A DNA stretch of 64,000 bases from Candidatus Omnitrophota bacterium (GTDB lineage: Bacteria; Omnitrophota; Gorgyraeia; Duberdicusellales; 4484-171). Below the pieces are notes generated by a model that was not told the origin of the DNA, did not search any database, and worked only from the letters and a program-made list of their open reading frames with translations. The stretch's first letter is position 1; each line of letters opens with the position of its first letter. Location of the stretch: the NCBI GenBank assembly GCA_037146775.1, contig JBAWWL010000003.1, positions 66,334 to 130,333 of the forward strand, in the 5' to 3' direction. Shown here piece after piece: positions 21,735 to 39,878 of this stretch. A program made the translations under genes and the position numbers.

Positions 21735-21737
21735 AAT

Positions 21738-23048: not shown

Positions 23049-23061
23049 AAAAGTCTAGCAC

Positions 23062-23916
23062 ATGCCAGTTAAATTTATAGCTGAAGTTTCTAGTAACCAC
23101 AACAAAGATTTAAAGCGTTGCCTAAGATTTATTGATGTAGCAGCAAAAATAGGCTGTGATGCGGTAAAATTCCAGTTATTTAAAATAGAAAGGCTTTTTG
23201 CGTCAGAGGTTTTAAAGAAGAATAAAGATATTCAAAAAAGAAAACAATGGGAATTACCTATTGGTTTTTTACCCCGCCTATACAAACGAAGCAAAAAAAT
23301 AGGATTGCAATTTGGCTGCACACCATTTTATATGGAGGCAGTAGACGAGCTAAAGCCGTACGTAGACTTTTACAAGATATCGTCTTATGATTTATTGAGG
23401 CTAGATTTAATCAAAGCGTGTGGATTAACAGGTATTCCGGTAATTCTGTCAACGGGAATGGCAAACATGGCAGAAATAAAAGAAGCTGTTGATGCCTTGC
23501 GTTTAGTTAAAACCAAAGATATTTCGTTGCTCCATTGCGTGTCAAATTACCCCACTTTAGTAAAAGATTGTAATTTAGCTGTGATTAATACCTTAAGGGA
23601 TAAATTTAGATGTAAAGTAGGCTGGTCCGACCATACGGTGTCAGATATTGTTTTATTTCGGGCAGTTTATACATGGAATGCCGAAATTATTGAATTTCAT
23701 TTCGATTTAGATACTAAAGGAAGAGAATTTAATATTGGACATTGTTGGTTGCCTGAGCAAATTTCCTCAGTAATTAAAAAAATAAAAGAAGGACAATTTG
23801 CTGACGGAAAAGGCGTTAAGGAGCCGAAAGTCTGTGAGTTACGAGAAAGAAACTGGCGGGCAGATTATCACGATGGTCTAAGGCCTTTAATGGAAACACG
23901 CAAGAGATTGAAATAA
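23062..23916 (+). CDS. NeuB/PseI/SpsE-family nonulosonic acid synthase (short form lacking the C-terminal SAF domain)
   Basis: FIAEVSSNHNKDLKRCLRFIDVAAKIGCDAVKFQLFK matches the NeuB N-terminal TIM-barrel. At 284 aa it is shorter than the ~340-aa NeuB/PseI, which carry the antifreeze-like domain. Confidence 0.7.
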   Translation: MPVKFIAEVSSNHNKDLKRCLRFIDVAAKIGCDAVKFQLFKIERLFASEVLKKNKDIQKRKQWELPIGFLPRLYKRSKKIGLQFGCTPFYMEAVDELKPYVDFYKISSYDLLRLDLIKACGLTGIPVILSTGMANMAEIKEAVDALRLVKTKDISLLHCVSNYPTLVKDCNLAVINTLRDKFRCKVGWSDHTVSDIVLFRAVYTWNAEIIEFHFDLDTKGREFNIGHCWLPEQISSVIKKIKEGQFADGKGVKEPKVCELRERNWRADYHDGLRPLMETRKRLK

Positions 23917-23924
23917 TAATTAGT

Positions 23925-24050: not shown

Positions 24051-24054
24051 TTTG

Positions 24055-25086
24055 ATGAAAAAAACAATAATTATCCGCTGTGACGGAGATTCGCAAGTTG
24101 GATTGGGGCATATTTATCGCTGTATTGCTCTTGCTGATGAGCTTCGAAAAACCTATAGATGTAAGATAATATTTGCGTTGATAAGAGGAAAAGAGGGTAT
24201 AGATTTAATTAAACAAGCACATTATTTCTTAGAGAAAAAACCTTTAAATATTAATGAAGAAAACTGGCTTAATACAATTATCAAACAATATGCACCCAGC
24301 ATTTTAATCTTTGATATTCGTACAGATCTTTCACGAGCGGCTCTTGAGGGTTGGCGTAATAGCAAAATGTTAACCGTTATTATAGACGATACGAGCTCAC
24401 GGCGTCTTGCTGGCAATTTAGTTTTTTGTCCGCCCGTTAGGCAAATAAAAAAATTAGATTGGAAAAATTTTAAAGGTAAATTATATACAGGCTGGAAATG
24501 GGTAATATTAAGAAAAGAGTTTGCCAAGAATTATCCAAAACGTATTAATAAAATACCACAGGTATTAGTCACTATGGGTGGCAGCGATCCACAGGCAATG
24601 ACACTCAAGACAATTAAAGCATTAGATTTTTTACGAGACAATTTTAATACGGTTGTCGTATTGGGTGCTGGATTCAAGCGCAACAAAGAATTACGCGTAT
24701 TACTATATAAAGCATATCGGCCGTTTGTGATTAGAAGAAATGTAAAAAATATAGCACAAATTATGTCAAAGGTTGATTTAGCCGTTGCTTCTTTTGGGGT
24801 AACGGCGTATGAGCTCGCGGCAATAAAGGTTCCGGCTATATATCTGTGTCTGACAAAAGACCACGCGCAGTCTGCAAAAACTTTTACTAATACCGGTATG
24901 GCCATATCGGTAGGGGTGCATAATAAGGTGCAAGAACAATTATTAGCGAAAAAAGTGCATCTCTTGCTGCGAGAAAAAATAGCTAGAGATAAAATGAAAA
25001 GCCGATGTTATAAAAAGATAGACGCCCAGGGCGCAGAACGTATTGCTGCTGTTATCATAAATGCTGTGGAGGCTACTTATGGGTGA
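24055..25086 (+). CDS. pseG: PseG-like UDP-2,4-diacetamido-2,4,6-trideoxy-hexose hydrolase (GT28-like fold)
   Basis: IIIRCDGDSQVGLGHIYRCIALADEL matches the PseG N-terminal signature (RxDxxxxxGxGHxxR). The C-terminal half is MurG-like. Confidence 0.65.
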   Translation: MKKTIIIRCDGDSQVGLGHIYRCIALADELRKTYRCKIIFALIRGKEGIDLIKQAHYFLEKKPLNINEENWLNTIIKQYAPSILIFDIRTDLSRAALEGWRNSKMLTVIIDDTSSRRLAGNLVFCPPVRQIKKLDWKNFKGKLYTGWKWVILRKEFAKNYPKRINKIPQVLVTMGGSDPQAMTLKTIKALDFLRDNFNTVVVLGAGFKRNKELRVLLYKAYRPFVIRRNVKNIAQIMSKVDLAVASFGVTAYELAAIKVPAIYLCLTKDHAQSAKTFTNTGMAISVGVHNKVQEQLLAKKVHLLLREKIARDKMKSRCYKKIDAQGAERIAAVIINAVEATYG

Positions 25087-25993
25087 TACAAAATCTTGGA
25101 AGAAGCATAAAGGTTGTTTATTGGATTCCGAAAAAGGGTTTGATGTTATAGATTGTTTAACTTGCGGTTTTAAGCACATTATTCCTATACCCACTTTCAA
25201 TGAATTAAAATCTGTTTATCGTCACCAATATTATACTCTTGAAAAACCATTATATTTAGAGCGCCACAGAGAAGACTTAGATTGGTGGAATTTGGTATAT
25301 AGCGAGCGTTACGATATTTTTGAAAAAGAATTATCTCTTAAGCACCGCATGATCTTAGATATAGGTTCAGGTCCGGGTTTTTTTCTTTTACATGGTAAGC
25401 AGCGCGGATGGGAAACGTTAGGTATTGAGCCATCTAAAAAAGCTGCTATGCATAGTAAGGAATTAGGGCTAAACATTCGAGAAGATTTCTTGACAAAAAA
25501 AACTGCTAAACAATTAGGTAAATTTGACGTAGTTCATCTTAGCGAGGTTATTGAGCATATTTCTGATCCTAAGGGGCTTTTGTGTTTAGTAAGAAGCATA
25601 TTGAATCCAGGAGGGCTTATTTGTGTTGTTGCGCCTAACGACTACAATCCCTTTCAGTATGTTTTAAGAAAGGCGTGTGGTTTTAAGCCTTGGTGGGTTG
25701 CCCCACCGCACCATATAAATTATTTTGATTTTGATTCTTTAAGTAAATTATTAAAGAATAGCGGATTTAAAATAATTTCTTGCGAAGCCACCTTTCCTAT
25801 AGATATTTTTCTTTTGATGGGAGATAATTATGTTAATAATGAGGTGCTTGGGAGACAGTGCCATACTAAGCGTAAACAATTTGAGCTAAATTTATGCAAA
25901 GCTGGTATGAAAAGTATTTATAAAAAACTATATCAACGATTAGCGGAAATGAAGATTGGACGCGAAATCGTAGTTTATGGTCGCAAGGTTTGA
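25079..25993 (+). CDS. class I SAM-dependent methyltransferase with a zinc ribbon
   Basis: CLTCGFKH ribbon and motif I LDIGSGPGFF. The ATG at 25079 gives an ATGA overlap with the pseG stop. Confidence 0.7.
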   Translation: MGDTKSWKKHKGCLLDSEKGFDVIDCLTCGFKHIIPIPTFNELKSVYRHQYYTLEKPLYLERHREDLDWWNLVYSERYDIFEKELSLKHRMILDIGSGPGFFLLHGKQRGWETLGIEPSKKAAMHSKELGLNIREDFLTKKTAKQLGKFDVVHLSEVIEHISDPKGLLCLVRSILNPGGLICVVAPNDYNPFQYVLRKACGFKPWWVAPPHHINYFDFDSLSKLLKNSGFKIISCEATFPIDIFLLMGDNYVNNEVLGRQCHTKRKQFELNLCKAGMKSIYKKLYQRLAEMKIGREIVVYGRKV

Positions 25994-26081: not shown

Positions 26082-27293
26082 ATGATGCAAAGTATCCCGC
26101 CAACCAGTAGAGAATGTTTTATCTGCGCGAGTTCTGAGCAAGAAGTAATTGAAGATTTCCTAGGAGCCGCCTTGTTTGTTATGGATGATTTTTATTCAAT
26201 TGATATTAAAAAAGTTCTTTGTAAACAATGTGGACTAATTTATGCGTCACATTATTTAGGTGTTGAGCATCTTGAGCGGTTGTATGTATCTATGAATGCT
26301 GGGCCGGAGAATCTCACCTATCGTTTTAGTGCGGCGCCTGATTATAATCAGTTTTTTGTAGATTCTTTGACAAAAATGTTTCCTAACAGACGAAGAAGGG
26401 TATTAGATGTTGGGTGCGGAAGGTGCCAAACCCTCGATCGTTTTAAATCTCTCGGCTGGGAAACGTACGGTGTCGATATTTCTCCACTTAGCCAGGATTT
26501 AGCTAAGAAGAAAGGACATTCGGTATGGTGTGGGGCATTTCAAGATATAGATTTTGGAGACATCCAATTTGAGGCCATTCTTTTTGAAGAATCACTGGAG
26601 CACATGTTGAATCCTAACTTTGTTTTAGAACGGGTCAATGAGTTATTAACGGATAGCGGGTTGATTGGAGTATCTTTGCCGGAATCGTATACATGTTTGA
26701 AGAGTAAGAATCTTTATGATATCTTACGAGACGATCATTGCAATCATTTCACCCCCGTTACTATTCGTAAATTGCTTACTTCAAAAGGACTGTACCCACT
26801 AGATATGTATTTAGATGTGGACGCGCCACTTCCTGATATGAAAGTAATAGCGTCTAAAAAACCAGTTTTTTCTTTATTAGTGGAAGGTTTTGAGGAAAAG
26901 CGTGATTTCTCACGAGAGGCCATGCAGTTATACTGGAAGATGAAGCAGGGCTTACGCGATGTTTTTTCAAAGGAGACATCCGGTTATAAACGAATCGTCG
27001 TCTATTGCGCCGGATCTTACGCAACGATTGTCTTGCCGGTTATCTGGGGAGATTATTCGAAGCGAGTAACGGCCTTTATTGATAATGATCTGCGAAAGTA
27101 CGGCAAGAGTCTTTACAATAAGCCAGTCTTACCTTCCCGGGATTTGAAAGATTTGAATCCGGACTGTATTGTCATTGCTAGTGAACAGTTTGAGAATGAA
27201 ATTTGTGGCAATATTTCTGAAGACATGCAAAGCGTTAAAATAATTAAAGCGCACCATTTTTTAAAAGACGTATTAAGTCAAATGGTAATTTGA
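26082..27293 (+). CDS. NDP-hexose C-methyltransferase-like protein (TylCIII/NovU architecture: Zn-binding domain, methyltransferase domain, C-methyltransferase C-terminal domain)
   Basis: N-terminal CFIC...CKQCG ribbon and motif I LDVGCGRCQT. C-terminal ~150 aa read RIVVYCAGSYATIVLPV...AFIDNDLRKYGKSLYNKPVLPSRDL...PDCIVIASEQFENEI, matching the pattern of the C-methyltransferase C-terminal domain (G.G..., D.N..K.G, PD..LI..W....EI). Confidence 0.5.
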   Translation: MMQSIPPTSRECFICASSEQEVIEDFLGAALFVMDDFYSIDIKKVLCKQCGLIYASHYLGVEHLERLYVSMNAGPENLTYRFSAAPDYNQFFVDSLTKMFPNRRRRVLDVGCGRCQTLDRFKSLGWETYGVDISPLSQDLAKKKGHSVWCGAFQDIDFGDIQFEAILFEESLEHMLNPNFVLERVNELLTDSGLIGVSLPESYTCLKSKNLYDILRDDHCNHFTPVTIRKLLTSKGLYPLDMYLDVDAPLPDMKVIASKKPVFSLLVEGFEEKRDFSREAMQLYWKMKQGLRDVFSKETSGYKRIVVYCAGSYATIVLPVIWGDYSKRVTAFIDNDLRKYGKSLYNKPVLPSRDLKDLNPDCIVIASEQFENEICGNISEDMQSVKIIKAHHFLKDVLSQMVI

Positions 27294-27316: not shown

Positions 27317-28480
27317 ATGTTCCATAAATTTTTTTCAGACAATGAACTTGGTTTTTGGCGATTTTATTGCAATACAAAGATTTTTTTCGGGAGAGGCGAG
27401 GTCTTTAAAATATTGAGAGAAATTGTTAACTCTTTCGGTGGAAAAATCGGGGTTTTGACCGACGAGAATGTTAATCGACTGCATTTTACCGAAAATTTTC
27501 TAGCGGCGGTTCAAGACCAAATTAGCTCTGTACATTTTGCGGGGCGTGAAGCGAATTATTCGGATATCGAAAAAGTCGTTACGGCATTTAGGAAGTCGGA
27601 CGTTAAAACGATAATGGCAATCGGTGGTGGCAGCGTTTTAGATTCCGCAAAAGTCGCATCTGTGCTTGTGAACAATCCTATGGATATTACGGCTCTTCAT
27701 AATGTTTCTGAATTGGAGAATCCCAGAGTGCCATTGATAGCCATTCCGACTACGTTTGGAACCGGTTCGGAAGTGAATATGTATGCAGTTGTCAATAATG
27801 AATCGAACACGTTACGGACGTCAATTAAAAATTTTTTTTTAACTCCCGATATTGCGATTATTAATCCAGATGTTGCCAAGGAGACCCCAGTATCTCTAAA
27901 GTATGAGGTTGGCATTGACGCGTTTGTACATGCGCTTGAAGTTTTGACTTTAAAGCGAGAAATTTCTCCAGTTCAAATACCATTGATGAGATCAGCTATG
28001 GACCTATTCTTCCGGCATTTCAAAAATTATGTTGAGAATCCCCACGATGAAGACGAAGAGGCCATAGCCACCGCTTCTATTATAGCGGGAATTGGAGTTA
28101 ATAATTCTCGTTCAGGACTCATCCACTCCCTCGCGAATAAGTTTGCTAAACACCAGTGGTGTTCGCACCCGGTTTCTCTTATTCCTTTCATTTTACCTTG
28201 CTTGAGATTAAACTGGAGCTACGATCGAAAATATTTTCAAGACATGCCCTGGCAGGATTTCTATCGGCAAATGAAGGAAAGGATTTTATTTAGGCCCGCA
28301 GAAGAATTGTCTTGTCTTGCTATCAGTAAAGACATGATAGACGTTATGGCAGAAGAATGTTTAACGGATACTGTGATTCTAAAAGAGAATCCAGTCATTT
28401 TGAGCAAGCAGGTATTCAAGTTACTCTATGAGCAGGCATTATGTCTTGGCGGAAATATAAACTCTTGCCATGAAAGTTAA
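27317..28480 (+). CDS. iron-containing alcohol dehydrogenase family protein (DHQS/Fe-ADH superfamily)
   Basis: MAIGGGSVLDSAKV glycine-rich NAD(P)-binding motif of Fe-ADHs, plus the metal-binding His region. Confidence 0.65.
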   Translation: MFHKFFSDNELGFWRFYCNTKIFFGRGEVFKILREIVNSFGGKIGVLTDENVNRLHFTENFLAAVQDQISSVHFAGREANYSDIEKVVTAFRKSDVKTIMAIGGGSVLDSAKVASVLVNNPMDITALHNVSELENPRVPLIAIPTTFGTGSEVNMYAVVNNESNTLRTSIKNFFLTPDIAIINPDVAKETPVSLKYEVGIDAFVHALEVLTLKREISPVQIPLMRSAMDLFFRHFKNYVENPHDEDEEAIATASIIAGIGVNNSRSGLIHSLANKFAKHQWCSHPVSLIPFILPCLRLNWSYDRKYFQDMPWQDFYRQMKERILFRPAEELSCLAISKDMIDVMAEECLTDTVILKENPVILSKQVFKLLYEQALCLGGNINSCHES

Positions 28481-28727: not shown

Positions 28728-28964
28728 GTTTTTTATCGATCAATGTTCAGATGATAATTAAAAACAAAAATATTCCAGATCAAGAAATCAAGATTATAAA
28801 AAATGAGACAAAGAAGGAACTTTTAGATGAATTATCGCAGTATTCTTGCGTGAATTTTTATCAAAAGGCTAGTGACGATCCTAAAGGCCCGGAGATTTTG
28901 TCGAATCCCTGATCATTTTTGACTTATACCGGTCGAAGAATATTTTGTGGAGAAAGTTAACTCG

Positions 28965-30467
28965 ATGAGAATAATATTAATTGAACCGCCAATTAGCCGG
29001 CCTAAAGATGAAACAGTGGGGATCGCAGCGGAGGTTCCTATGGCCCTAGTTTCACTTGCCGCTACGCTTTTAAAAAGAAATCACGAAGTACATATTATCG
29101 ATGCCTTTGCTGAGGGGTATTTCGAGAGGACTATTCGAGATAAGAATAGTATGTATATTGGTCTTACCTTTGAAGACATTTTACAAAGAATTTTAAATTT
29201 CCGTGCAGACATTGTCGGAATTTCTTCAATATTTTTCTTTAATGCGCCAGTCGTCGTTGAGCTTGCTAACTTTCTTAAAGAACGCTGCCCAAATTTACAA
29301 ATTATTTTGGGTGGAATTGTCCCCGGGGTGCTATACCAAAAAATAATGAAGGAGAAAGGTGTGGATTTTATCGTGAGGGGGGAGGGAGACCATATTTTAC
29401 CCGATCTCGCAGAGAACATCAAAAATCCCGCCAAGGTACACGGCATTATTTGGCGCAAGGGGGCAAAAATTATCATAAATGAGGATGTGCCATTGCCTGA
29501 AGATCTGGATCAGTTACCTTTTCCTGCACGCGAACTATCTGATTTAGACCTTTACATCAAACTGGACAAGCCATTTGGATTTGTAAAAGAGAGAAAACGG
29601 TTTACAACGATATTAACTTCAAGGGGATGTCCTTTTTCTTGCGCTTTTTGTTCCGCTCATTTGGTACACGGGAAAAAAATTAGGTATCGCTCACCAGAAA
29701 ATGTTCTCATGGAGATTGATGAGCTGGTACAGAATTACGGAATCAATGAGGTGCATATCATTGATGAAAACTTCTCTTTAGACAAGTCACGCGCCATGAA
29801 AATAATGAACGGTTTAATTATGCGAGGTTATAATAAATTTCTTTCGTGGACCTGTCCAAACGGTCTCTTTGTCAAGTCTTTAGACGAGGAAGTAATAGAT
29901 AAGATGCAAGAAAGCAATTGCATTTCGGTGGCGTTGGCTGTTGAGAGCGGAAATCACGACGTCTGCAAAAATATGGTGAGAAAACCAGTTGATCATAAGC
30001 AAGTCGAAAGGGTTGTCAGGTATTTTAAAGAGCATACGGATATTCTTTTATGTGGATATTTCATTATAGGCTTTCCGGGAGAAACAAAAAAACAGGTAAT
30101 TGAAACATTTAACTTTGCGAATAAATTACAAATGCATAATGCTACAATTAGTATTTTAATGCCGTATCCATTCACGGATATTTACAATATTGCCTTGAGA
30201 GATGGATATCTTATTTTGGATGAAACGGATGAGTATTTTTCAAACCTGATGCCTAAACATGGTGTTATTAAGACCAATGAATTTGACCCATCGTGGCTTA
30301 AGGCAATCCAAGAAACCGATCGTTTCTTGGCACTTTTGAAAAAGAAGAAGAAGACTTTTTGGAGATTATGCTGGGAACTGATTTTTCGAGTCCATTGGAT
30401 GCTACCACGGGTTGCAGTGATGATTATTTATCACGCGATTAAAGGGGATATTTCGGGGAAAAAATGA
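28965..30467 (+). CDS. B12-binding domain radical SAM protein (class B rSAM)
   Basis: N-terminal cobalamin-binding Rossmann-like region, then the CxxxCxxC cluster (SRGCPFSCAFCS). The ATG at 28965 is preferred over the GTG at 28947. Confidence 0.75.
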   Translation: MRIILIEPPISRPKDETVGIAAEVPMALVSLAATLLKRNHEVHIIDAFAEGYFERTIRDKNSMYIGLTFEDILQRILNFRADIVGISSIFFFNAPVVVELANFLKERCPNLQIILGGIVPGVLYQKIMKEKGVDFIVRGEGDHILPDLAENIKNPAKVHGIIWRKGAKIIINEDVPLPEDLDQLPFPARELSDLDLYIKLDKPFGFVKERKRFTTILTSRGCPFSCAFCSAHLVHGKKIRYRSPENVLMEIDELVQNYGINEVHIIDENFSLDKSRAMKIMNGLIMRGYNKFLSWTCPNGLFVKSLDEEVIDKMQESNCISVALAVESGNHDVCKNMVRKPVDHKQVERVVRYFKEHTDILLCGYFIIGFPGETKKQVIETFNFANKLQMHNATISILMPYPFTDIYNIALRDGYLILDETDEYFSNLMPKHGVIKTNEFDPSWLKAIQETDRFLALLKKKKKTFWRLCWELIFRVHWMLPRVAVMIIYHAIKGDISGKK

Positions 30468-30708: not shown

Positions 30709-31569
30709 TTGGTGGGTGGAGATAGCGACTTGAATAAAAAACAAATAAAATTCCTGCAAAGACTCGCGTCGGAAATAAGGACATATATTATTCGAATGAA
30801 TTGTTATGCGAATTCCGGACATCCTGGTGGGGCTTTGTCGTCGGCAGAAATCATTACTTATCTTTTTCATAAAGAGCTTAATTTTTCCCTATGTAATTAC
30901 CGGGATCCAGAGCGAGACCGGTTTATTCTGTCCAAGGGGCATTCTTGCATGGTTTTGTATGCGGCTCTGGCGCAGAAGGGTTTTTTTGGAATAGAGGAAT
31001 TTAGGAAATTACGCAAAGTTAATAGTATACTTCAGGGGCATCCTGATCGATTGAAGACCCCGGGCGTTGAGTTTAATTCCGGTTCTTTAGGCCAAGGATT
31101 TTCGTTTGCTCTTGGTTGTGCATTAGGTGGAAAACTTACTATGAAAAAATTTAGGGTTTATGTGCTACTTGGCGATGGGGAGTTAAACGAAGGCCAAGTG
31201 TGGGAAGGTTTTATGTTCGGCGCATTTTATAAATTAGATAATTTAGTTGCTATTGTAGATTATAATAAATATCAAAGCGATGATTTGTGCTCCAATGTTA
31301 CTGCACTTGAGCCCTTGGCTGATAAATTTAAAGCATTTGGTTGGAATGTATTGAGGATTAATGGACATAATTTTAAAGAAATTGCCAGAGCCTTCAGAAA
31401 CGCAAAAAACAGGAAAGGTAAGCCGACGGTTATTTTGGCCGACACCATTAAAGGTAAGGGGATATCTTTTATGGAAAATAATCCAAAATGGCATGGGAGC
31501 CTTGCTCCTCAGGGCGAAGAAAAGAAATGTGCTTTTCAAGAATGCGGTTGCGACGATATTAATCTATGA
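30709..31569 (+). CDS. transketolase, N-terminal (TPP/PP-domain) subunit
   Basis: SGHPGGALS, LGDGELNEGQVWE, and the GxxG TPP-binding motifs. A non-ATG (TTG/GTG) start is needed to retain the conserved N-terminus. Confidence 0.8.
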   Translation: MVGGDSDLNKKQIKFLQRLASEIRTYIIRMNCYANSGHPGGALSSAEIITYLFHKELNFSLCNYRDPERDRFILSKGHSCMVLYAALAQKGFFGIEEFRKLRKVNSILQGHPDRLKTPGVEFNSGSLGQGFSFALGCALGGKLTMKKFRVYVLLGDGELNEGQVWEGFMFGAFYKLDNLVAIVDYNKYQSDDLCSNVTALEPLADKFKAFGWNVLRINGHNFKEIARAFRNAKNRKGKPTVILADTIKGKGISFMENNPKWHGSLAPQGEEKKCAFQECGCDDINL

Positions 31570-32513
31570 TGACAATGCGTGAAGCCTTTGGTAAAGTTTT
31601 GGTTGAGTTAGGAAGCATACGTGATGATTTTGTAGTTCTCGATGCAGATGTGGCTGGTGGCACAGGTACCAATATTTTTAGAGACAAGTTTCCTGATAGA
31701 TTTATACAATGCGGTATTGCCGAGCAGAACATGATGTCTGTAGCCGCTGGTCTTTCAAGTATAGGGATTATACCCATTGTTACTTGTTACGGAGTTTTTG
31801 CTTCAATGCGAGCACTAGAACAAGCAAGAAATTCCATAGCTTATCCTAATTTTAATGTGAAAATTGTAGCGAGCCATTTAGGACTTGATGTTGGGCCGGA
31901 TGGCCCTACGCATCAGGCAATAGAGGATATCGCAATTTTCAGGTCTATTCCCAACTTTCGTATTATTTCTCCAGCTGATCCGTTTGAACTAAAAAAAGCC
32001 TTTACCGTTATGCTTGATATCCAGGGACCTTTTTACTTTCGCACAGGCAGAAGCCCCATACCTTTTATTTTTAATGATGATATAGATTTTAGGTTAGGAA
32101 AAGGAGTGCTTGTCCGAAAAGGCAATGATATTACTATAATAGCGGTGGGGGTAATGGTGAGCAGGGCAATTGAAGCGGCAGAAAAACTTAAAAACAAAAG
32201 GATACATTGTCGGGTAATCAATATGTCTACTCTCAAACCGATTGACAAAAAAATTATTATAAATTCAGCGGTTAAAACTAGAGCATTTGTTACAGCAGAG
32301 GACCACAATGTTAAGGGGGGGTTGGGCAGCGCAGTATCAGAGGTTTTAAGCCAACATTGCCCCTGTCCAATAGAATTTGTGGGTATCAAAGATACGTTCG
32401 CGGAATCCGGAGAGCCAGGATCATTGGCAGAAAAATACGGATTGACTTCTTCACATATTATTAAGGCAGTGGAACGGGTTATAAGACGTAAGAAAAAGGA
32501 GAATATAAAATGA
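31566..32513 (+). CDS. transketolase, C-terminal (Pyr-domain plus C-terminal domain) subunit
   Basis: FIQCGIAEQNMMSVAAGL and the HLGLDVGPDGPTHQAIEDIA motif. The start overlaps the N-terminal subunit gene. Confidence 0.8.
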   Translation: MMTMREAFGKVLVELGSIRDDFVVLDADVAGGTGTNIFRDKFPDRFIQCGIAEQNMMSVAAGLSSIGIIPIVTCYGVFASMRALEQARNSIAYPNFNVKIVASHLGLDVGPDGPTHQAIEDIAIFRSIPNFRIISPADPFELKKAFTVMLDIQGPFYFRTGRSPIPFIFNDDIDFRLGKGVLVRKGNDITIIAVGVMVSRAIEAAEKLKNKRIHCRVINMSTLKPIDKKIIINSAVKTRAFVTAEDHNVKGGLGSAVSEVLSQHCPCPIEFVGIKDTFAESGEPGSLAEKYGLTSSHIIKAVERVIRRKKKENIK

Positions 32514-33256
32514 TTCTTTCCAATAAAGTTACTCTGGTTACAGGCGGTAGTCGAGGTCTTGGGAGAATAATTAGTTTAAATTTAGCTAACGCGGGAGCTT
32601 TGGTGATTTTGACTTATCATACGCGAAGACATCAAGCCGAAAGAGTCGTTCAACAGATTTTGCATGATGGCGGTAAGGCGTTGGCCTTACAAATGGATGT
32701 ATGCGACAGAAGGAGTGTCCGAAAAGTCATTGGATTTATAAAAAAGAAGTATAAAAAACTAGATGTTTTAGTCAATAACGCGGGTATAAATCAGCCGGCC
32801 GATTTCGATAAAATTAAAGACAAAGATTGGGATAAAGTTTTAGCTGTTAATCTTAAGGGTCCGTTTATATGTATTCAAGAATCTTTGTTTTTACTGAAGA
32901 AATCAGCAGCTGGCAGCATAATCAACATTGGTTCGGTCAGTGGTCAATATGGTGGTCCGAGAACAGTCCACTATGCAGTAAGTAAAGCCGGATTGATTTC
33001 TTTAAGCCAAGTTGTAGCTCGTTTTGTTGCAAATTATAATATTCGTTGTAATACCATAGCCGTAGGATTAATAAAATCTGAAATGGCAAATAAGGGTTTA
33101 AAATCTTTAGCTGTATCGAAATTAGCGGAGAATATATTATTAAAAAGATTAGGTACGGCACAAGAAGTGGCGACGGCGGTATTATTTTTAGCAGCGAATG
33201 ACAGTAGCTATATTACTGCGCAAACAATTAATGTTAATGGAGGTTTATACTTTTGA
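32510..33256 (+). CDS. SDR-family oxidoreductase (FabG-like 3-oxoacyl reductase fold)
   Basis: TGGSRGLGR, NNAG, and YxxSK (YAVSKAG) motifs. Confidence 0.8.
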   Translation: MILSNKVTLVTGGSRGLGRIISLNLANAGALVILTYHTRRHQAERVVQQILHDGGKALALQMDVCDRRSVRKVIGFIKKKYKKLDVLVNNAGINQPADFDKIKDKDWDKVLAVNLKGPFICIQESLFLLKKSAAGSIINIGSVSGQYGGPRTVHYAVSKAGLISLSQVVARFVANYNIRCNTIAVGLIKSEMANKGLKSLAVSKLAENILLKRLGTAQEVATAVLFLAANDSSYITAQTINVNGGLYF

Positions 33257-34470
33257 ACAAGACTTTACTTATTATAGGCGCTGGCATAGAACAAATTCCA
33301 GGCATAAAATTAGCCAAAAAAATGGGACTATATGTTTTAGCAACAGATGGTAATCCTTTTGCGCCCGGTTTTAAACATGCGGATGATTATGCCAGGGTAA
33401 GCACTTATAATATTAAAGGGACAGTAGATTTTGCTTCTAGGTATAACCAAAAGAAAAAAATAGACGGCGTAGTGACTTTAGCTAGTGACGTTCCTGTGAC
33501 CGTTTCTTCAGTGGCACATGAATTACGATTATCTGGGAATACTATAACAACAGCAAAATTAGCATCTAACAAATTACTGATGAAAAATAAATTTGCTGCC
33601 GATGGTATTTCTATTCCAGAATTTTGCGAGGTAAAGAATGTGCAAGATATCAAAAGATTTATTAAAAAAAATGGATATCCAGTAGTTATAAAACCAATTG
33701 ATAGTCGCGGAGCAAGGGGAGTTTTGAGAATTACAGAAAATATAGACTTGGAATGGGCATTTGGACGAAGCAAAAAAGAGTCATCTTTGGGGCGGGTTAT
33801 GGTAGAAAAATTTTTAGACGGCCCGCAGATTAGTTCAGAATCTATTATCTATGATGATAATATTTATACCCCGGGATTATCTAATAGAAATTACGAATAT
33901 CTGGAAAGATTCAGTCCTTACATAATAGAAAATGGAGGAGATCTTCCTGTTTCGTTGAACGACAGCCAAAAAAAATCTTTAGATGAAGTTTTGCTTAAAG
34001 CTGCAAATTCAATAGGGATTAAGCGAGGCTCGATCAAGGGAGATATCGTTTGGACGCGTAATGGACCAAAAGTGATAGAGGTGGCCGCGCGTTTAAGTGG
34101 CGGTTGGTTTTGCACTGATGAAATCCCACTTTCAACCGGGGTCAATGTTGTAAAAACGGTTATTGATATGGCTTTGGGGATAAAGCCTAATTTTACGGAA
34201 CTTATACCAAAATATCATAGAGGAGTGGCATTAAGGTATATTTTCGCAAATAAAGGTAAAATAACTGGAATTTCCGGAGTCAATGTTGTCAAGGGTAACC
34301 CAAATGTCGTAAAGGTTGGGATAAATATTAAGCCAGGTAGCATTATAGATGAAATAAGCGACCATACGAAGAGGTTAGGTTATGTTATAACACGAGCTGA
34401 CACAAGAGAAAAAGCTATAAAAGCTGCCCAAAAAGCTATATCCTCAATAAAAATACACATTTCTAAATGA
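33253..34470 (+). CDS. ATP-grasp domain protein
   Basis: Pre-ATP-grasp Rossmann region (LLIIGAGIEQI) followed by the ATP-grasp core (YPVVIKPIDSRGARGV...VEKFLDGPQISSE). The start is a TTG overlapping the upstream stop. Confidence 0.6.
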   Translation: MNKTLLIIGAGIEQIPGIKLAKKMGLYVLATDGNPFAPGFKHADDYARVSTYNIKGTVDFASRYNQKKKIDGVVTLASDVPVTVSSVAHELRLSGNTITTAKLASNKLLMKNKFAADGISIPEFCEVKNVQDIKRFIKKNGYPVVIKPIDSRGARGVLRITENIDLEWAFGRSKKESSLGRVMVEKFLDGPQISSESIIYDDNIYTPGLSNRNYEYLERFSPYIIENGGDLPVSLNDSQKKSLDEVLLKAANSIGIKRGSIKGDIVWTRNGPKVIEVAARLSGGWFCTDEIPLSTGVNVVKTVIDMALGIKPNFTELIPKYHRGVALRYIFANKGKITGISGVNVVKGNPNVVKVGINIKPGSIIDEISDHTKRLGYVITRADTREKAIKAAQKAISSIKIHISK

Positions 34471-36470
34471 ACAAGCTAAATTTATACATTGTATTTCATT
34501 TAAATATCAATTATTCATCTATTGCCAAGAAGCAGAGACCTCTTGTTATGGAAAAATGTTACTGGCCAATATTAGATTTTGTTGATTTATTCAACATTCC
34601 GTTGGGTATAGAATTGTCAGGATATACATTAGAGCAAATTAACAAACTTTCTCCTGATTGGACTAAAAAAATTCGCTCATTATTGAAGCAGAATAAAATT
34701 GAGATAATCGGATCCGGTTATTCTCAAGTAATAGGACCACTAGTTCCGGCTGAAGTTAATCAATATAATCAAAAAATTGGTATAGAAACTTATCAAAAAA
34801 TCTTAGGGGTAAGGCCAATAATTGCCTTGGTCAACGAACAAGCCTATTCCGTTGGCTTACTATCTCATTATAAAAAAGCAGGTTACCAGGCTATTGTGAC
34901 GGAATGGGATAATCCTTATCGTTTTCATCAAAATTGGAATAAGTTATGGAAGTATTATCCACAGATAGCTTGCGATGATTATGGTAATCGTATTAATCTT
35001 ATTTGGAATAAAGCAATCGCTTTTCAAAAATTCCAGCGCTACGCCCATGCGGAAATAGAATTTGATGAGTATCTTGAATATTTAAAAAGCCATATAGCAA
35101 AAGAAGAAAGAACTCTTGCTTTGTACGGAAATGATGCTGAGATTTTTGATTTCCGACCAGGCCGTTTTCTTACTGAGGCAAAGATATATAAGAATGGTGA
35201 ATGGAATAGGATTAAAGAACTATTTAAAAGACTAAAGGAAGATAGAAATTTTGACTTTATACTTCCCTCGGACGTTCTTAAATTATTAAAGCATCCTTTA
35301 GCTGGAAACAAACTGCATTTAGAGTCGAGCGAGCAGCCGATACCAGTAAAAAAACAGGAGAAATACAATATTACCAGATGGGCAGTTACTGGTAAAAATG
35401 ATACAGAAATTAACACTAAATGTTATCAAATTTATTATCGCTTGATAAATTGTAAAATAATAGTAAAGAATCAGATGAAACTTAAGCAATTATGGAAAAA
35501 ATTATGCTATCTATGGAGCAGTGATTTCCGAACCCACATAGAACAGAAGCGGTGGCTAATTTTTCAAAAGGAGCTGGAAACCACGCTGCGTATAGCTAAT
35601 AAACTGCCAAGCAAAGAAGTAGCAAAGCGTAAAACTAATGTATGTTGCCATAAAAGTAACTATTTTCCCAAGGTAAATGTAAGAAATGTAAATACTAAGA
35701 TTGAAATTGAAACAAAAAGAGCTGAAATAACGCTTAACCGCGCCAAGGGATTAGCAATAGATTCGCTGATATTTAAAAATATTTCTGCCAAACCACTAAT
35801 TGGAACAATTCCGCACGGCTATTACGATGACATAAGTTTTGGCGCAGATTTTTTTACAGGGCATACTATTATAGAGGAGAGTGGTAAGAAAAAGATAACT
35901 GACTTAGAAGAAGCCCACCCAGTTATAGATAAAAATTGTCATAAAAATAAAGAATATTTAACCATAAAAGCTTTACTACAAACAAGGCTTGGTAAGATAC
36001 AAAAAGAAATTTTTATCTATCTTTTCAAAGATAGAATTGATATTAGTTATGATTTTGACATTTTTCTTGAAAATCTAGCTTCATTACGTACTGGCATTAT
36101 TACTTTATTGCCGGAATCTTTTGACAAAAAGACGCTTTATTATAAGACAATGAACGGCGGCTATAATCCTGAAAAGTTTTCGGTTGGTAAAAATTCTATA
36201 CGCCATACCAATTCTGTCGATAGGCTTATATCAGCGTGCCATTGTTTGGGTTCAACCAGTGGATGGGTTGAAATGGGAGATAAAGATAAACATATCACTG
36301 TTCATACCGATAAATCAAAGATGTATAGCGTTCCAATGATAGAATATGAAAATGTATCAAAATCTTATTTCTTTAGGTGTTCCAACTCGGTCTTAGAAAG
36401 CGATGAAACATCTGTTGAAAATAAAATAATTAAAGGAAAGATAACACTCTCTATAACAGCATCTAGATGA
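34467..36470 (+). CDS. hypothetical protein with an N-terminal GH57-like (glycoside hydrolase family 57 fold) domain
   Basis: The first ~190 aa are collinear with the GH57 N-terminal barrel (block pattern FHLN.., Y.P.LD.., KIEIIGSGYSQVIGPL.., ALVNEQAYS, VTEWDNPY). The canonical HQP motif is replaced by HLN, and the remaining ~450 aa are unrecognised. Confidence 0.35.
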   Translation: MNKLNLYIVFHLNINYSSIAKKQRPLVMEKCYWPILDFVDLFNIPLGIELSGYTLEQINKLSPDWTKKIRSLLKQNKIEIIGSGYSQVIGPLVPAEVNQYNQKIGIETYQKILGVRPIIALVNEQAYSVGLLSHYKKAGYQAIVTEWDNPYRFHQNWNKLWKYYPQIACDDYGNRINLIWNKAIAFQKFQRYAHAEIEFDEYLEYLKSHIAKEERTLALYGNDAEIFDFRPGRFLTEAKIYKNGEWNRIKELFKRLKEDRNFDFILPSDVLKLLKHPLAGNKLHLESSEQPIPVKKQEKYNITRWAVTGKNDTEINTKCYQIYYRLINCKIIVKNQMKLKQLWKKLCYLWSSDFRTHIEQKRWLIFQKELETTLRIANKLPSKEVAKRKTNVCCHKSNYFPKVNVRNVNTKIEIETKRAEITLNRAKGLAIDSLIFKNISAKPLIGTIPHGYYDDISFGADFFTGHTIIEESGKKKITDLEEAHPVIDKNCHKNKEYLTIKALLQTRLGKIQKEIFIYLFKDRIDISYDFDIFLENLASLRTGIITLLPESFDKKTLYYKTMNGGYNPEKFSVGKNSIRHTNSVDRLISACHCLGSTSGWVEMGDKDKHITVHTDKSKMYSVPMIEYENVSKSYFFRCSNSVLESDETSVENKIIKGKITLSITASR

Positions 36471-36482
36471 GTTTAATTTATC

Positions 36483-38006
36483 ATGGACATTAAAAGCAAT
36501 AATATGTTCGCCATGAGCAATGATGTTTTTTATGCACTATATTCTTGGATAGATAAACATAGTCGAGAGAAACAATTTATTTATGAAGGAATAGATATTC
36601 TTCAAGCATATGGAGAGAGGCTATATTATTTTTTATTTACCATTGTTCAGGAAGAAACAGTAAAAAATTCCACTAAAAACACATATTCTACTATAACTTC
36701 GGAAATGGAACTAAGCTATAAAAATGATAATTTTTCCGCTCGGGAACTTTTAGATTCTTTTTTAAACACAATACGTAAAACAACAAATTTTTTAAGACCT
36801 ATTAAAAATAAAAAAATTCTTATATATTCTGATTTAAATCGGGTAGAAGTAATCACAGAGCTGCTAAAGAAAGAAGTTATCTTTTTAAGAGACTCACTGC
36901 CAACATCATTATTTTTTCCGTTATTGTCTAAGGGAATTATTATAAAGTTAACTTCAGACTATAGAATATCTCTCAAACAAAAGGAAAATCTCTCACGAGT
37001 TGCAGATGAAATGATAAATAAAATGGAAAAATCATCCGAAGTCTTATATCTCAGCAATAATAATTTTTCTTGTTATGTCAAAAAATATCTTTTATTGATA
37101 TGGCAAAAAGAATTAGCACACGTTTTTCAAAGGATAGAGCAGTTTCATTCTTTATTCAAGACCGTACCAATTGTGGCTTTGTTGGTTGATGAGGATAGGA
37201 CTGTTGATAAAAATTTATTGGTTCAGGTGTCTAAGCAATATTCTTGTAAATCTTATGTAAATTGTCATGGTGAACCATTCTTAAAAATAGGATATATTCC
37301 CCTGGTTGCTGATTATATATTTGTGTGGGGAGAGCACCAAAAAACAATATTGATTCAAGCAGGCTTAGAGGCCAATAAAATTATCGTAAATGGCAGTTCC
37401 AAGCACGACCTCTATGTGAATGTTGATACCGCTGTAATTAAAAGAAAGATTTGTAAAGATTTACAATTATCACAATCCAAGACGATATTATTGATTGCTC
37501 CTCATCCTATCTTTGATAAAAGAACAGTTTGGAAACGTATATTATGGCCTCAAAATGAGGCGATAATAAGGACAGCCAGCACTTTTAAGGAATTACAAAT
37601 TGTCGTAAAACTTCATCCTGGTGACGTGTGTGGTCCCGAAATACGTTTTTTGGCAAAAAGTTTAGGTATTAGGGAAGAAAGCATTCTAATAAAATACGAT
37701 TCTCTTGTATTAGCCAAGGGGGTAGACCTGTTAATTGTTAACAAATCTACTTTTGCTATTGATGGGTTGGCATACCAGAAACCAGTGGTTCTAGCCGATG
37801 AAGAAAGTGTAGAAAGGTATAAAAACCTGAATGTATTTTATGATGGAACAACAGAAGAAAAATTAAAAGATTCTATCGAGGGCATTTTATCCGGCAAGTA
37901 TAAAAACCATCTTGTTAATTGGCAGACAGCTGCTAATTATTTGTTTAATGGTGTGGATGGTAAGGCTTCGGAAAGGATTGTCAAGAGGTTACTTGAAAAT
38001 GAATAG
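36483..38006 (+). CDS. hypothetical protein, weak resemblance to TagB/TagF-type CDP-glycerol glycerophosphotransferase / capsule-synthesis C-terminal domain
   Basis: The C-terminal region LLIAPHP...IVVKLHPGD...LLIVNKSTFAIDGLAYQKPVV resembles the HP-motif region of TagF-like enzymes. This is a low-confidence call. Confidence 0.3.
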   Translation: MDIKSNNMFAMSNDVFYALYSWIDKHSREKQFIYEGIDILQAYGERLYYFLFTIVQEETVKNSTKNTYSTITSEMELSYKNDNFSARELLDSFLNTIRKTTNFLRPIKNKKILIYSDLNRVEVITELLKKEVIFLRDSLPTSLFFPLLSKGIIIKLTSDYRISLKQKENLSRVADEMINKMEKSSEVLYLSNNNFSCYVKKYLLLIWQKELAHVFQRIEQFHSLFKTVPIVALLVDEDRTVDKNLLVQVSKQYSCKSYVNCHGEPFLKIGYIPLVADYIFVWGEHQKTILIQAGLEANKIIVNGSSKHDLYVNVDTAVIKRKICKDLQLSQSKTILLIAPHPIFDKRTVWKRILWPQNEAIIRTASTFKELQIVVKLHPGDVCGPEIRFLAKSLGIREESILIKYDSLVLAKGVDLLIVNKSTFAIDGLAYQKPVVLADEESVERYKNLNVFYDGTTEEKLKDSIEGILSGKYKNHLVNWQTAANYLFNGVDGKASERIVKRLLENE

Positions 38007-39480
38007 CCAAGATAGGAAGGCGGTAATAATTAAAGATACAAGCAAATATTCTTTAGCGCAATATGCGGCGCAGGCAATCGGTTTTCTTACCGCATTTTTT
38101 ATGCGTAAGTTTTTGGGGCCTTATCAGATGGGTATATGGAGTTTGCTTAAAGTAGCGCAAGGATATTTAGGCTATTTGCAGCTTGGGGTTGAATCTGCCG
38201 CGGTGTATCGTATCCCGTTTTATAAAGGGAAAAGCGACGTCGCCGCTGAAACTGAAACAAAAGATACTGCTTTTAGCTTCATGTTTTTGATGTCTGTATT
38301 TTCATCAATAGCTTTGGCAATCGCCGCATTGTTGGTAAGAAAGCATTATCCATTAGAAGTTATTGTCGGCCTTTTATCTTTAGCGTTGTATGTTATCCTG
38401 CAGCGTTTATATTCTTTCTATATCATTACGCTAAGAGCTTACAGAAATTTTTCAGTGCTTACTAAGTCGTTACTTTTTGACGCTATAGTTAACCTTATAT
38501 TGGTGGTTTTATTAGTTAAGTTTTTTAAAATTTACGGGCTTTATATTACCATAAGCATACTTGCTGTCTTAAATACGTTGTTTGTAGGCCGTCTGTCCGG
38601 ATATAAATTAAATTTTAAGTTTGTATTCAAGCGGTTTAAGGAGCTGACTGTTTATGGTTTTCCGCTTTTGATTGGAGGCTTTTTGGGGGAGATATTAAGC
38701 ACCATAGACAGCATTATGATTGCAAAAATGATGGGTGTGGTTTTTGTGGGTTATTACAGCGTTGCTCTTATGACAAAAAATTGTATTTATGGTTTATCTA
38801 ACAATTTAGGGATTGTAACTATACCTCATATGCAGGAAGTGTATGGCAAAAGCGGGGATATGGAAGAAATAAAGAAATTTGTAACTCATTCTGTAAAAGT
38901 AATTTCATATCTTTTGTCGCCCATCTTAGGTATAACTTATTTTATCGCACCTTTTTTTGTAACAATTTTTCTGCCCAAATATATCCCAGGTATAGCTGCC
39001 TTGCAAATACTTCTTCTTAATACATTTTTTCTTTCTTGTTCTGCGCAATCAGGGCAATTTCTAGTTACTATCGGGAAACAGTCTCGTTTAATAATTATTA
39101 GTGTGGCCGCGATTATACTAAATATATTTTTCAACTTTTATTTTATTAAAATCGGATTAGGAATTTCAGGCGTTGCGTTGGGTACTTCGTTTTCTTCTTT
39201 TTTTGTTTTTACAGCCATGCTTATATATGCGATGAAACACTTTGCGAATTTTCGTGACATATTTAAATTCATTGTTAATATTCTGCTCGCCCCATTTTAT
39301 ATGATATCCATAATCTATTTTTGTGACTCTTTAAAAATCACAGGACTTTCCTCGATATCATTGCTTACTTTTCAATTAATTGTTATGGCTTTTGCTTCAT
39401 TGCCTTTAGTTATCTATATAAATAAAGAAACAGGAGTATTACATTTAATATTCGAAGCGATAGTAAAACGTTTTAAGTAA
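37999..39480 (+). CDS. oligosaccharide/polysaccharide flippase (Wzx-like, MOP superfamily)
   Basis: About 12-14 transmembrane segments with MATE-like flippase architecture. The ATG at 37999 gives an 8-nt overlap with the upstream stop. Confidence 0.65.
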   Translation: MNSQDRKAVIIKDTSKYSLAQYAAQAIGFLTAFFMRKFLGPYQMGIWSLLKVAQGYLGYLQLGVESAAVYRIPFYKGKSDVAAETETKDTAFSFMFLMSVFSSIALAIAALLVRKHYPLEVIVGLLSLALYVILQRLYSFYIITLRAYRNFSVLTKSLLFDAIVNLILVVLLVKFFKIYGLYITISILAVLNTLFVGRLSGYKLNFKFVFKRFKELTVYGFPLLIGGFLGEILSTIDSIMIAKMMGVVFVGYYSVALMTKNCIYGLSNNLGIVTIPHMQEVYGKSGDMEEIKKFVTHSVKVISYLLSPILGITYFIAPFFVTIFLPKYIPGIAALQILLLNTFFLSCSAQSGQFLVTIGKQSRLIIISVAAIILNIFFNFYFIKIGLGISGVALGTSFSSFFVFTAMLIYAMKHFANFRDIFKFIVNILLAPFYMISIIYFCDSLKITGLSSISLLTFQLIVMAFASLPLVIYINKETGVLHLIFEAIVKRFK

Positions 39481-39528
39481 TTATGCCGAAAATTAATATT
39501 GCAGTTTTAAATTATATTTTTACCAAAA

Positions 39529-39873
39529 AAGGATGGGGGGATAACTGGTGTAGCCATCACAACACTATTGTCTTCTTTTTTTATTTTTATTGTTACGCTA
39601 GTATGTACTACGCGCCATTTTTCTAAGCAACATGAAATTATACAGTTTATTTTAAAAATTTTGTTTCCTCTAGTCTATGTTATATGTATTGTGATGGGGG
39701 TGTACTTATTTTATAAGAATTTTAAATCCCGACATTAGATTATTTGTAAATCTCGCAGTAATGAGCGTAGCCTCGATGCCTTTATTATTTTATATTGACA
39801 AAAAAACACATGTTTTGCGGTTAATATTTAAGTATTTAAAAAATAAAATTATATTCATGAAGAGGAGGATGGT
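39529..39873 (+). pseudogene. degenerate duplicate of the 3' end of the flippase gene (two frames, internal stop)
   Basis: GITGVAITTLLSSFFIFIVTLVCTTRHFSKQHEIIQFILKILFPLVYVICIVMGVYLF parallels flippase residues GISGVALGTSFSSFFVFTAMLIYAMKHFANFRDIFKFIVNILLAPFYMISIIYF. LFVNLAVMSVASMPLLFYIDKKTHVLRLIF parallels LIVMAFASLPLVIYINKETGVLHLIF. Confidence 0.5.
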
Positions 39874-39878
39874 GAACA

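Follow-up and report, generated by a model that had tools for sequence, protein, structure and literature searches.

Split transketolase, ATP-grasp and GH57-like genes in a pseudaminic-acid-type nonulosonic acid locus of a Candidatus Omnitrophota bacterium

We analyzed a stretch of 64,000 nucleotides from contig JBAWWL010000003.1 of a Candidatus Omnitrophota bacterium (GenBank assembly GCA_037146775.1; referred to as the window hereafter), with a focus on the seven genes at positions 30709-39480. These genes encode the two halves of a split transketolase, a short-chain dehydrogenase/reductase (SDR), an ATP-grasp ligase, a protein related to glycoside hydrolase family 57 (GH57), a 507-amino acid (aa) protein of the glycosyltransferase B (GT-B) fold and a Wzx-type flippase, and make up the 3' half of a ~22-kb locus for a nonulosonic acid (NulO) of the pseudaminic acid type (17854-39480). 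For comparison, we fetched 80 loci bearing a GH57-like gene, scored their open reading frames (ORFs) against the window proteins, and counted co-occurrence in the 55 loci of at least 17 kb (individual loci are given L numbers below). The split transketolase, SDR, ATP-grasp and GH57-like genes turned out to be a recurrent accessory tailoring cassette of NulO loci. A previous sequence-only reading of this DNA had proposed the block as a candidate pathway for a separate branched or C2-extended sugar polymer and had not connected it to the pseudaminic acid genes directly upstream; a decorated nonulosonic acid within a polysaccharide is more likely. Nonulosonic acids on flagella, S-layers, capsules and lipopolysaccharide (LPS) shape motility, phage attack and immune recognition.

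Seven genes at 30709-39480

The seven ORFs proposed in the sequence-only reading are real, as all of them were found at the same coordinates on the forward (+) strand, on which every gene described below lies unless noted otherwise. Four successive 4-bp ATGA/TTGA overlaps connect the genes for the N- and C-terminal transketolase subunits (tktN and tktC), tktC and the SDR gene, the SDR and ATP-grasp genes, and the ATP-grasp and GH57-like genes. A 12-bp gap separates the GH57-like gene from the gene for the 507-aa protein, and the latter overlaps the flippase gene by 8 bp if the flippase starts at ATG 37999 or by 95 bp if it starts at TTG 37912 (the public annotation starts at 37999). Thus, five of the six junctions overlap as had been reported, and on these grounds the block can be taken as one coupled unit. 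Promoter and terminator scans stayed at chance level, and the operon limits are not definable from them. As for the products, the domain assignments held in Pfam with the exception of the TagF-like one (see below).

The tktN gene (30709..31569) encodes the PP-domain subunit (Transketolase_N, PF00456; 1.8e-51, 175.5 bits) and tktC (31566..32513) the subunit with the Pyr and TKC domains (Transket_pyr, PF02779; 1.8e-41, 142.1 bits; Transketolase_C, PF02780; 1.5e-34, 119 bits); the model NF004559 scored 303.9 and 279.6 bits on the two halves. The subunits matched the split transketolase of C. hydrogenoformans, tktN its N-terminal chain 6YAK (6.5e-87) and tktC 6YAJ (1.9e-98). In alignments to 6YAK/6YAJ and human transketolase, LLGDGE...DYN, IAEQNM, SGHPGG, SKGH, QGHP and WHG are conserved, which we take to be the thiamine diphosphate (ThDP)/Mg motif GDG...N, the cofactor-activating Glu and the catalytic His residues of transketolase. 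Human R318, H416 and R474 are kept as R5, H104 and R162 in tktC, and S345 is replaced by G32. These four human residues presumably bind phosphate, and with three of them retained, the substrate could be phosphorylated or carboxylated. Judged from its residues, the pair appears to be a competent, canonical-looking transketolase, which has the two-chain architecture, ThDP motif, cofactor Glu and catalytic His in common with the C. hydrogenoformans enzyme. The latter is the only transketolase of that organism and hence housekeeping (PMC7661550). In contrast, the window pair lies within a glycan tailoring cassette, to which it is coupled translationally, and has Gly in place of human Ser345.

The third gene (32510..33256) encodes a FabG-like classical SDR ketoreductase of 248 aa (adh_short_C2, 6.3e-57), and the fourth (33253..34470) a 405-aa ATP-grasp carboxylate-amine ligase of the L-amino-acid-ligase type (ATP-grasp with LAL_C2, 5.2e-20), for which the L-amino acid ligase 3VOT (2e-18) is the closest match among solved structures.

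The fifth gene (34467..36470) encodes the GH57-like two-domain protein of 667 aa. Pfam detected PF03065 at residues 29-275 (1.7e-18, 67.4 bits; cut-off, 21.2). The AlphaFold2 model (predicted local distance difference test score [pLDDT], 84.8; predicted template-modelling score [pTM], 0.88) comprises an N-terminal alpha/beta barrel and a C-terminal beta-sandwich, and a Foldseek search with it found 1K1X, a structure of the Thermococcus litoralis GH57 4-alpha-glucanotransferase, first (7e-27), followed by GH38 enzymes (mannosidases; TM 0.6-0.68). Pfam, the model, Foldseek and a family profile alignment to 1K1W consequently agree on the GH57 fold that had been suggested from the N-terminus. In the alignment, E124 and D223 of the window protein, both of which are invariant in 18 family members, coincide with E123 and D214 in the enzyme of T. 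litoralis. We take E123 and D214 to be the catalytic nucleophile and acid-base, respectively. The N-terminus reads MNKLNLYIVFHLNINYSS, in which HLN (H11, L12 and N13) stands in place of the HQP of GH57 conserved region 1, as noticed earlier; the family keeps H and N almost without exception.

Because the Glu/Asp pair is retained, the GH57-like protein probably does glycosidic-bond chemistry, and is probably neither a dead scaffold nor a deacetylase. The GH57 fold is related to carbohydrate esterase/deacetylase folds, and a role as a de-N-acetylase was considered; it was set aside because the GH57 pair is kept and a separate PIG-L deacetylase gene adjoins in some loci. The two-domain fold is common to the window protein, the T. 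litoralis enzyme (1K1W/1K1X) and GH38 alpha-mannosidases. Nevertheless, the window protein differs from the T. litoralis enzyme in the low identity (~12%), in HLN instead of HQP, and in a context of NulO tailoring instead of alpha-glucan metabolism, and this genomic context argues for a substrate other than alpha-glucans. The family has >3180 matches, is conserved over the full length (mean column identity of 53% in a sample of 18), and has relatives in 377 GTDB species, with Thermoplasmata, Methanothrix, Methanocalculus and Aenigmatarchaeota among the archaeal lineages represented. A gammaproteobacterial locus (L082, 8051-14207) and a locus of Patescibacteria (L034) possess the GH57-like gene without ATP-grasp, in the order glycerate-kinase-like (DUF4147 + MOFRL), KduI-like cupin, GH57-like, CDP-alcohol transferase-like and PF04464 TagF-like. 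In the cyanobacterial loci L074 and L065, the GH57-like gene adjoins the genes for a sugar-binding ABC protein and a hybrid histidine kinase.

The sixth gene (36483..38006) had been interpreted as that of a TagF-like glycerophosphotransferase. This assignment could not be retained: no PF04464 (Glyphos_transf) match was found in the 507-aa protein by Pfam at E 0.01, and a sequence search gave no match in the Protein Data Bank. The scores of Epimerase_2 (28.3 bits; cut-off, 30.6), Capsule_synth (16.1 bits) and TIGR04396 (33.8 bits; cut-off, 125) were all below threshold. The structural model has a generic GT-B fold, for which Foldseek found WecB/NeuC-type UDP-GlcNAc 2-epimerases (3e-10), TarL (7e-9) and TagF (1e-7), and a PF04464-bearing protein of L086 shares 28% identity with the C-terminal half of the 507-aa protein (E 4e-11). 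'TagF-like' would thus be true at the level of the predicted fold only. The family is small (19 matches), with homologues of ~580 aa, and the window copy is shorter by ~70 N-terminal residues. One homologue takes the same position in L089. Another was found in L090, an Omnitrophota NulO locus which contains an aldo-keto reductase-cytidylyltransferase fusion, a class-III aminotransferase and NeuB, and no tkt, ATP-grasp or GH57-like gene. As the family occurs in such a locus, a NulO transferase fits the 507-aa protein better. A related glycosyltransferase of the TIGR04396/BFO_1060 type follows the cassette in a Chloroflexi locus. Altogether, Foldseek and the context of the homologues make the 507-aa protein a probable transferase of the CMP-activated sugar.

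The seventh gene (37999..39480, or from TTG 37912) encodes the Wzx-type flippase, and Polysacc_synt_3 (4.9e-16, 59.3 bits) and Polysacc_synt (1.2e-13, 51.6 bits), both above the Pfam threshold, bear out its initial identification. In the 398 bp after the flippase gene (39481-39878), the flippase frame resumes past two in-frame stops and gives a transmembrane-looking peptide (DGGITGVAITTLLSSFFIFIVTLV...). The sequence of this region is identical in the NCBI metagenome-assembled genome and an independent Logan assembly, and the region may be a split or truncated Wzx tail.

The cassette and the NulO locus around it

Among the 55 loci, ATP-grasp was found in 47, usually directly upstream of the GH57-like gene, and SDR in 27. 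A gene for any ThDP enzyme was present within 10 kb in 32/55 loci, for which we roughly estimate a chance level of a few per cent. The ThDP enzyme was a split transketolase in 17 loci, an acetolactate-synthase-like enzyme in 11 and a 1-deoxyxylulose-5-phosphate synthase (DXS)-like enzyme in 7. The tktN and tktC genes always occurred together and always with ATP-grasp; the SDR gene directly followed the tktC orthologue in 11 of these 17 loci and was found anywhere in the locus in 15. The acetolactate-synthase-like enzymes scored 386-521 bits on TIGR00118, just below its cut-off, and the DXS-like copy of L036 scored above the DXS equivalog cut-offs. The ThDP slot beside SDR/ATP-grasp is hence interchangeable and occupied by no fewer than three enzyme families, to which one related locus (L088) adds a fourth in the form of an additional pair of E1 alpha/beta and SDR. 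Strict non-orthologous displacement was considered for this slot and then softened, since three loci carry two kinds of ThDP enzyme, and the types are therefore not strict alternatives. Two separate tktN-tktC pairs were seen in one locus in L026 and L086, an indication that C2 transfer takes place more than once in some variants.

The gene order in L089, the most syntenic locus, is tktN, tktC, SDR, ATP-grasp, GH57-like, 507-aa homologue and Wzx, matching that in the window. As the same gene order recurs across phyla, the arrangement of the seven genes is far beyond chance. The nearest TktC homologues in a large protein collection were also on contigs bearing GH57-like homologues, and three independent look-ups of their context (Alkalispirochaeta odontotermitis, Maridesulfovibrio ferrireducens and a long metagenomic contig) all revealed tktN-tktC-SDR together with ATP-grasp, two of the three with a GH57-like gene and NulO genes as well. 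Chance placement of the transketolase pair in a glycan locus is excluded. The neighbourhood search that had been suggested for co-occurrence of tkt, ATP-grasp and SDR in glycan loci was thereby borne out, and so was the idea of a transketolase dedicated to the cluster, as the tkt genes recur with SDR and ATP-grasp in related loci. The export routes around the cassette differ: Desulfospira and Geobacter have flagellin and Maf, a Chloroflexi locus has Wzt, and the window has Wzx. In L089, the region downstream of Wzx (15269-17425) contains a CDP-OH_P_transf-like gene, a 3,4-dihydroxy-2-butanone 4-phosphate (DHBP) synthase gene (RibB-like) and an NTP-transferase gene, which hints at a nucleotide-activated C4 ketol-phosphate or polyol-phosphate decoration there.

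In the window, the cassette is preceded by genes for a pseudaminic-acid-type sugar. PseB, the inverting UDP-GlcNAc 4,6-dehydratase of the first step (17854..18843; TIGR03589, 495.8 bits against a cut-off of 407.75; Polysacc_synt_2, 1e-99), and PseC, the aminotransferase yielding UDP-4-amino-4,6-dideoxy-AltNAc (18830..20089; TIGR03588, 509.6 bits against 423.5), are equivalogs by the NCBIfam cut-offs. The matches to PseG, PseI and PseF are family members below the equivalog cut-offs. A fusion of an aldo-keto reductase and a CTP_transf_3 cytidylyltransferase (20082..21734; Aldo_ket_red, 1.3e-33; CTP_transf_3, 3.5e-31; PseF model, 30.5 bits against 205.7) presumably activates the NulO with CMP. 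A class-III (GSA-like) aminotransferase (21738..23048; Aminotran_3, 5.9e-42) is a conserved partner of the NulO core, with orthologues of 480-600 bits in 13-14/55 loci. A short NeuB-family synthase of 284 aa without SAF domain (23062..23916; NeuB, 2.2e-58), which presumably forms the NulO by condensation with phosphoenolpyruvate, is below both the PseI (170.5 bits against 340.25) and NeuB equivalog cut-offs and has orthologues of about 350 bits in 19-22/55 loci. The last of this series is a PseG-like UDP-sugar hydrolase (24052..25086; TIGR03590, 135.1 bits against 153.55), found in 27/55 loci. The fusion and the class-III aminotransferase (20082-23048) recur as a unit with the short NeuB and PseG-like genes in L011, L018, L023, L090 and others. 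No acetyltransferase (PseH) is encoded between 17854 and 39480, according to an ORF and Pfam survey of that interval; the genes at 17854-25086 are gapless and leave no space for a further gene. Without PseH in the cluster, the 4-amine (the future N7) is not acetylated by this cluster, although a gene for such an enzyme may be present elsewhere in the genome.

Between these genes and the block are four tailoring genes. The first encodes a methyltransferase that depends on S-adenosylmethionine (SAM), MT1 (25061..25993; Methyltransf_23, 5.6e-23), a frequent partner of the cassette with orthologues in 25/55 loci, and the second another SAM methyltransferase, MT2, of 403 aa (26082..27293; C2185-like_N). 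We compared MT1 and MT2 with sugar C-methyltransferases, and similarity in the SAM core to TcaB9 alone was found, which is uninformative. The third gene encodes an iron-containing alcohol dehydrogenase (27317..28480; Fe-ADH, 4.7e-34), which also adjoins a tkt pair in L086, and the fourth a B12-binding radical SAM enzyme (28947..30467; Pfam B12-binding and Radical_SAM) of a probable role in C-methylation or related tailoring; the tkt pairs of L004, L086, L088 and L089 also have an enzyme of this kind next to them. Downstream of the flippase, there are glycosyltransferase genes, three GT9 genes, Bac_transf and Wzy_C, and because of these the region from ~0.4 to 58 kb of the window is one LPS/O-antigen-type locus (~57 kb).

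The canonical CMP-pseudaminic acid pathway of Campylobacter and Helicobacter (PseB, C, H, G, I and F) is matched by the window in its PseB/PseC equivalogs, and the roles expected of the later enzymes can be assigned to a PseG-like hydrolase, a synthase of the NeuB family and a CTP_transf_3 enzyme. On the other hand, the window has no PseH, its synthase lacks SAF, an aldo-keto reductase is joined to its cytidylyltransferase in one protein, and the class-III aminotransferase and the tailoring cassette are added.

A literature search for transketolase, ATP-grasp or GH57 linked to nonulosonic acids found nothing besides a paper on Shewanella oneidensis MR-1, whose sfmABCDE is the closest studied system. 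This operon (SO_3261-3265) is for flagellin modification, is located between two Maf genes, and encodes a 290-aa NeuB (SfmA), an IlvB-like ThDP enzyme, a FabG-like SDR (255 aa), a 395-aa methyltransferase (SfmD) and a 412-aa ATP-grasp; PseB and PseC are present, and clear PseH/G/I/F orthologues are lacking (Bubendorfer et al. 2013, PMC3765264). The flagellin glycan consists of a 274-Da mono-N-acetyl Pse-like sugar (C11H18N2O6) and a 236-Da moiety (C9H16O7), the latter bearing zero to two extra methyls (236/250/264 Da), and the sfmA-D mutants lost the whole glycan while the ATP-grasp mutant lost part of the mass (PMC3765264). Compared by domains and by the protein sizes in PMC3765264, the window possesses the full gene set of the sfm type (short NeuB, ThDP enzyme, SDR, methyltransferase and ATP-grasp with PseB/PseC) at similar sizes (NeuB, 284 aa; SDR, 248 aa; ATP-grasp, 405 aa), MT2 (403 aa) being in the size class of SfmD. 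Both systems also have an oversized cytidylyltransferase and no clear PseH/G/I/F orthologues. They differ in the ThDP enzyme (IlvB-like in Shewanella, split transketolase in the window), in the target (flagellin via Maf in Shewanella; no Maf in the window, which has Wzx, Wzy_C and Bac_transf), and in the GH57-like gene, which is in the window and which we have not seen reported for Shewanella. Acetolactate-synthase-like enzymes and Maf do occur in sister loci of the window cassette. The sequence-only reading recognised no characterised pathway; a partly characterised relative exists, and the interpretation given there is supported in part. A 2023 preprint still describes the Shewanella product as an atypical Pse derivative of unresolved structure, with an oversized cytidylyltransferase.

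This kind of Pse-tailoring system was already known, with the extra moiety of the sole studied relative chemically unresolved since 2013; new here are the split transketolase, the GH57-like partner and the LPS context. Genes of this logic are found widely, in 377 species of bacteria and archaea, and the GH57-like protein with its intact catalytic pair is an uncharacterised and the most constant partner. Targets that follow from these results are cultured carriers whose glycans could be analysed, enzyme pairs that could be reconstituted, and a marker gene for modified sugars in genomes.

Candidate pathway and alternatives

We consider it reasonably probable that the block is the distal part of a NulO locus, in which the ThDP enzyme, SDR and ATP-grasp tailor an amino-NulO. 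PseB and PseC produce UDP-4-amino-4,6-dideoxy-AltNAc, with the 4-amine left un-acetylated by the cluster, and the PseG-like hydrolase, short NeuB and cytidylyltransferase would complete the sugar and activate it with CMP. The ThDP enzyme would transfer an activated C2 unit to a carbonyl acceptor to give an alpha-hydroxyketone, which the FabG-like SDR would reduce to a vicinal diol. C2 carboligation followed by reduction by the SDR had been put forward before and is the most economical reading, given that various ThDP enzymes fill the slot beside SDR/ATP-grasp. The methyltransferases, radical SAM enzyme and Fe-ADH could diversify the unit, and the ATP-grasp of the L-amino-acid-ligase type could form an amide between a carboxylate and the amine left free on the NulO or on its precursor. 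Finally, the 507-aa GT-B protein would pass the CMP-sugar to a lipid-linked repeat unit, which Wzx would flip.

Several observations do not sit easily with this proposal. The acceptor of the ThDP enzyme, the substrates of the ATP-grasp and the part played by the GH57-like protein are inferred. The transketolase pair looks canonical and is very near the housekeeping split transketolase of C. hydrogenoformans, and this together with the kept phosphate residues favours ordinary sugar-phosphate substrates over an exotic acceptor. Some GH57-like copies are outside NulO contexts (cyanobacteria; no NulO genes in the 10-kb flanks), three loci contain two ThDP kinds and one contains two tkt pairs. Likewise, the loss of the whole glycan in the Shewanella ThDP, SDR and methyltransferase mutants is a poor fit to a side chain that is made separately and ligated last.

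The closeness of the pair to a characterised housekeeping enzyme and its fully intact catalytic residues could mean that it is an ordinary pentose-phosphate transketolase, present in the glycan locus by accident or merely for co-expression. We regard this as highly improbable: the 4-bp overlaps couple the pair to the SDR gene, tktN/tktC adjoin SDR and ATP-grasp in 17/55 GH57-like loci of many phyla and in all three independent contexts of the nearest homologues, and other ThDP enzymes take the same slot elsewhere. The pair may serve both housekeeping and the cassette. A teichoic-acid-like decoration with polyol or ketose phosphate makes more of the phosphate site. Here, the transketolase would work on ordinary sugar phosphates, the SDR would convert the ketose phosphate by reduction to an alditol phosphate, a nucleotidyltransferase would activate it, and the 507-aa GT-B protein would act in a TagF-like manner and add a phosphodiester. 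Such a pathway would agree with the conservation of R318, H416 and R474, with the DXS-like alternative that passes the DXS equivalog cut-offs and whose product is a sugar phosphate, and with the DHBP synthase, NTP-transferase and CDP-OH_P_transf-like genes downstream in L089. PF04464 proteins also occur in L082/L034, L086 and L087, and the 507-aa protein has TarL, TagF and Cps3D among its fold matches besides its similarity to the PF04464-bearing protein of L086. However, the 507-aa protein itself has no PF04464 match, and its family occurs without tkt and SDR in L090 and is absent from 55/55 GH57-like loci at the threshold used. Furthermore, the acetolactate-synthase-like alternatives yield non-phosphorylated products, the window has a single cytidylyltransferase, and the far better conserved ATP-grasp/GH57-like pair is left unexplained. 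This scheme as a whole is unlikely in our view.

A further alternative, which corresponds to the idea of a branched-chain sugar in the sequence-only reading, is branching of the yersiniose type. Here, the ThDP enzyme would act on the PseB product or a different NDP-ketosugar and attach the C2 unit directly to its 4-keto group, and the SDR would reduce the branch carbonyl to give a branched-chain sugar. In known systems, the ThDP enzyme and reductase YerE/YerF make C2 branches on NDP-4-ketosugars, and an E1 alpha/beta pair does C2 branching in the avilamycin pathway. The pairing of a ThDP enzyme with a reductase in a glycan locus resembles the YerE/YerF logic, a likeness by description, and acetolactate-synthase-like enzymes, as in YerE-type systems, fill the ThDP slot in sister loci of the cassette. 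The pairs of E1 alpha/beta and SDR and of acetolactate-synthase-like enzyme and SDR in related loci point in this direction, as does the Shewanella C9H16O7 moiety, which is nitrogen-free, sugar-like and, by arithmetic on the formula, fits e.g. a methyl-octose. Nevertheless, the window enzyme is a transketolase and not a flavoenzyme of the acetolactate-synthase type, and no CDP-3,6-dideoxyhexose genes accompany it. Transketolase and DXS accept aldehydes, not ketones, the kept phosphate pocket argues against a bulky NDP-sugar as the acceptor, PseC requires the same 4-keto group, and a second NDP-hexose pathway is not adjacent to the cassette. Thus, we consider such branching decidedly doubtful.

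The tailoring of an amino-NulO, which we prefer, can be extended to a more specific version that is itself quite unlikely. The cassette would then make a new building block of surface glycans, a higher-carbon, polyhydroxylated and variably methylated unit joined to the amino-NulO by the ATP-grasp. By the same tentative version, the unit would be built by at least one round of ThDP-dependent C2 extension and ketoreduction, and the GH57-like protein would be a non-Leloir transglycosylase or a processing glycosidase specific to it. If true, the same chemistry would be behind the 236-264 Da moiety of Shewanella and would be common to flagellin, S-layer and LPS glycans in bacteria and archaea.

Other genes of the window

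An 85-aa ORF at 28470-28727, which overlaps the Fe-ADH gene at its 3' end, matched no family and was encountered solely in the two assemblies of the same organism. We considered an acyl carrier protein and rejected it, as no Pfam match was found. Near the start of the window, a gene for an AAA_14 / DUF4143 ATPase (4505-5836) breaks up sugar-biosynthesis genes, and just downstream of it is a GT2 gene (7316-8062), the sole minus-strand gene of the locus. Large membrane proteins of 562, 740, 551 and 592 aa, including a glycosyltransferase of the PMT_2 type, are encoded in series at 8946-17252. Among them are also weak matches to Agl23-like and LIC_10190-family proteins, and the series may consist of periplasmic glycan-modifying enzymes. 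In the downstream part of the polysaccharide locus, a small ORF with precomputed Pfam matches to the bAvd / 23S_rRNA_IVP four-helix bundle (45787-46143) is located between glycosyltransferase genes.

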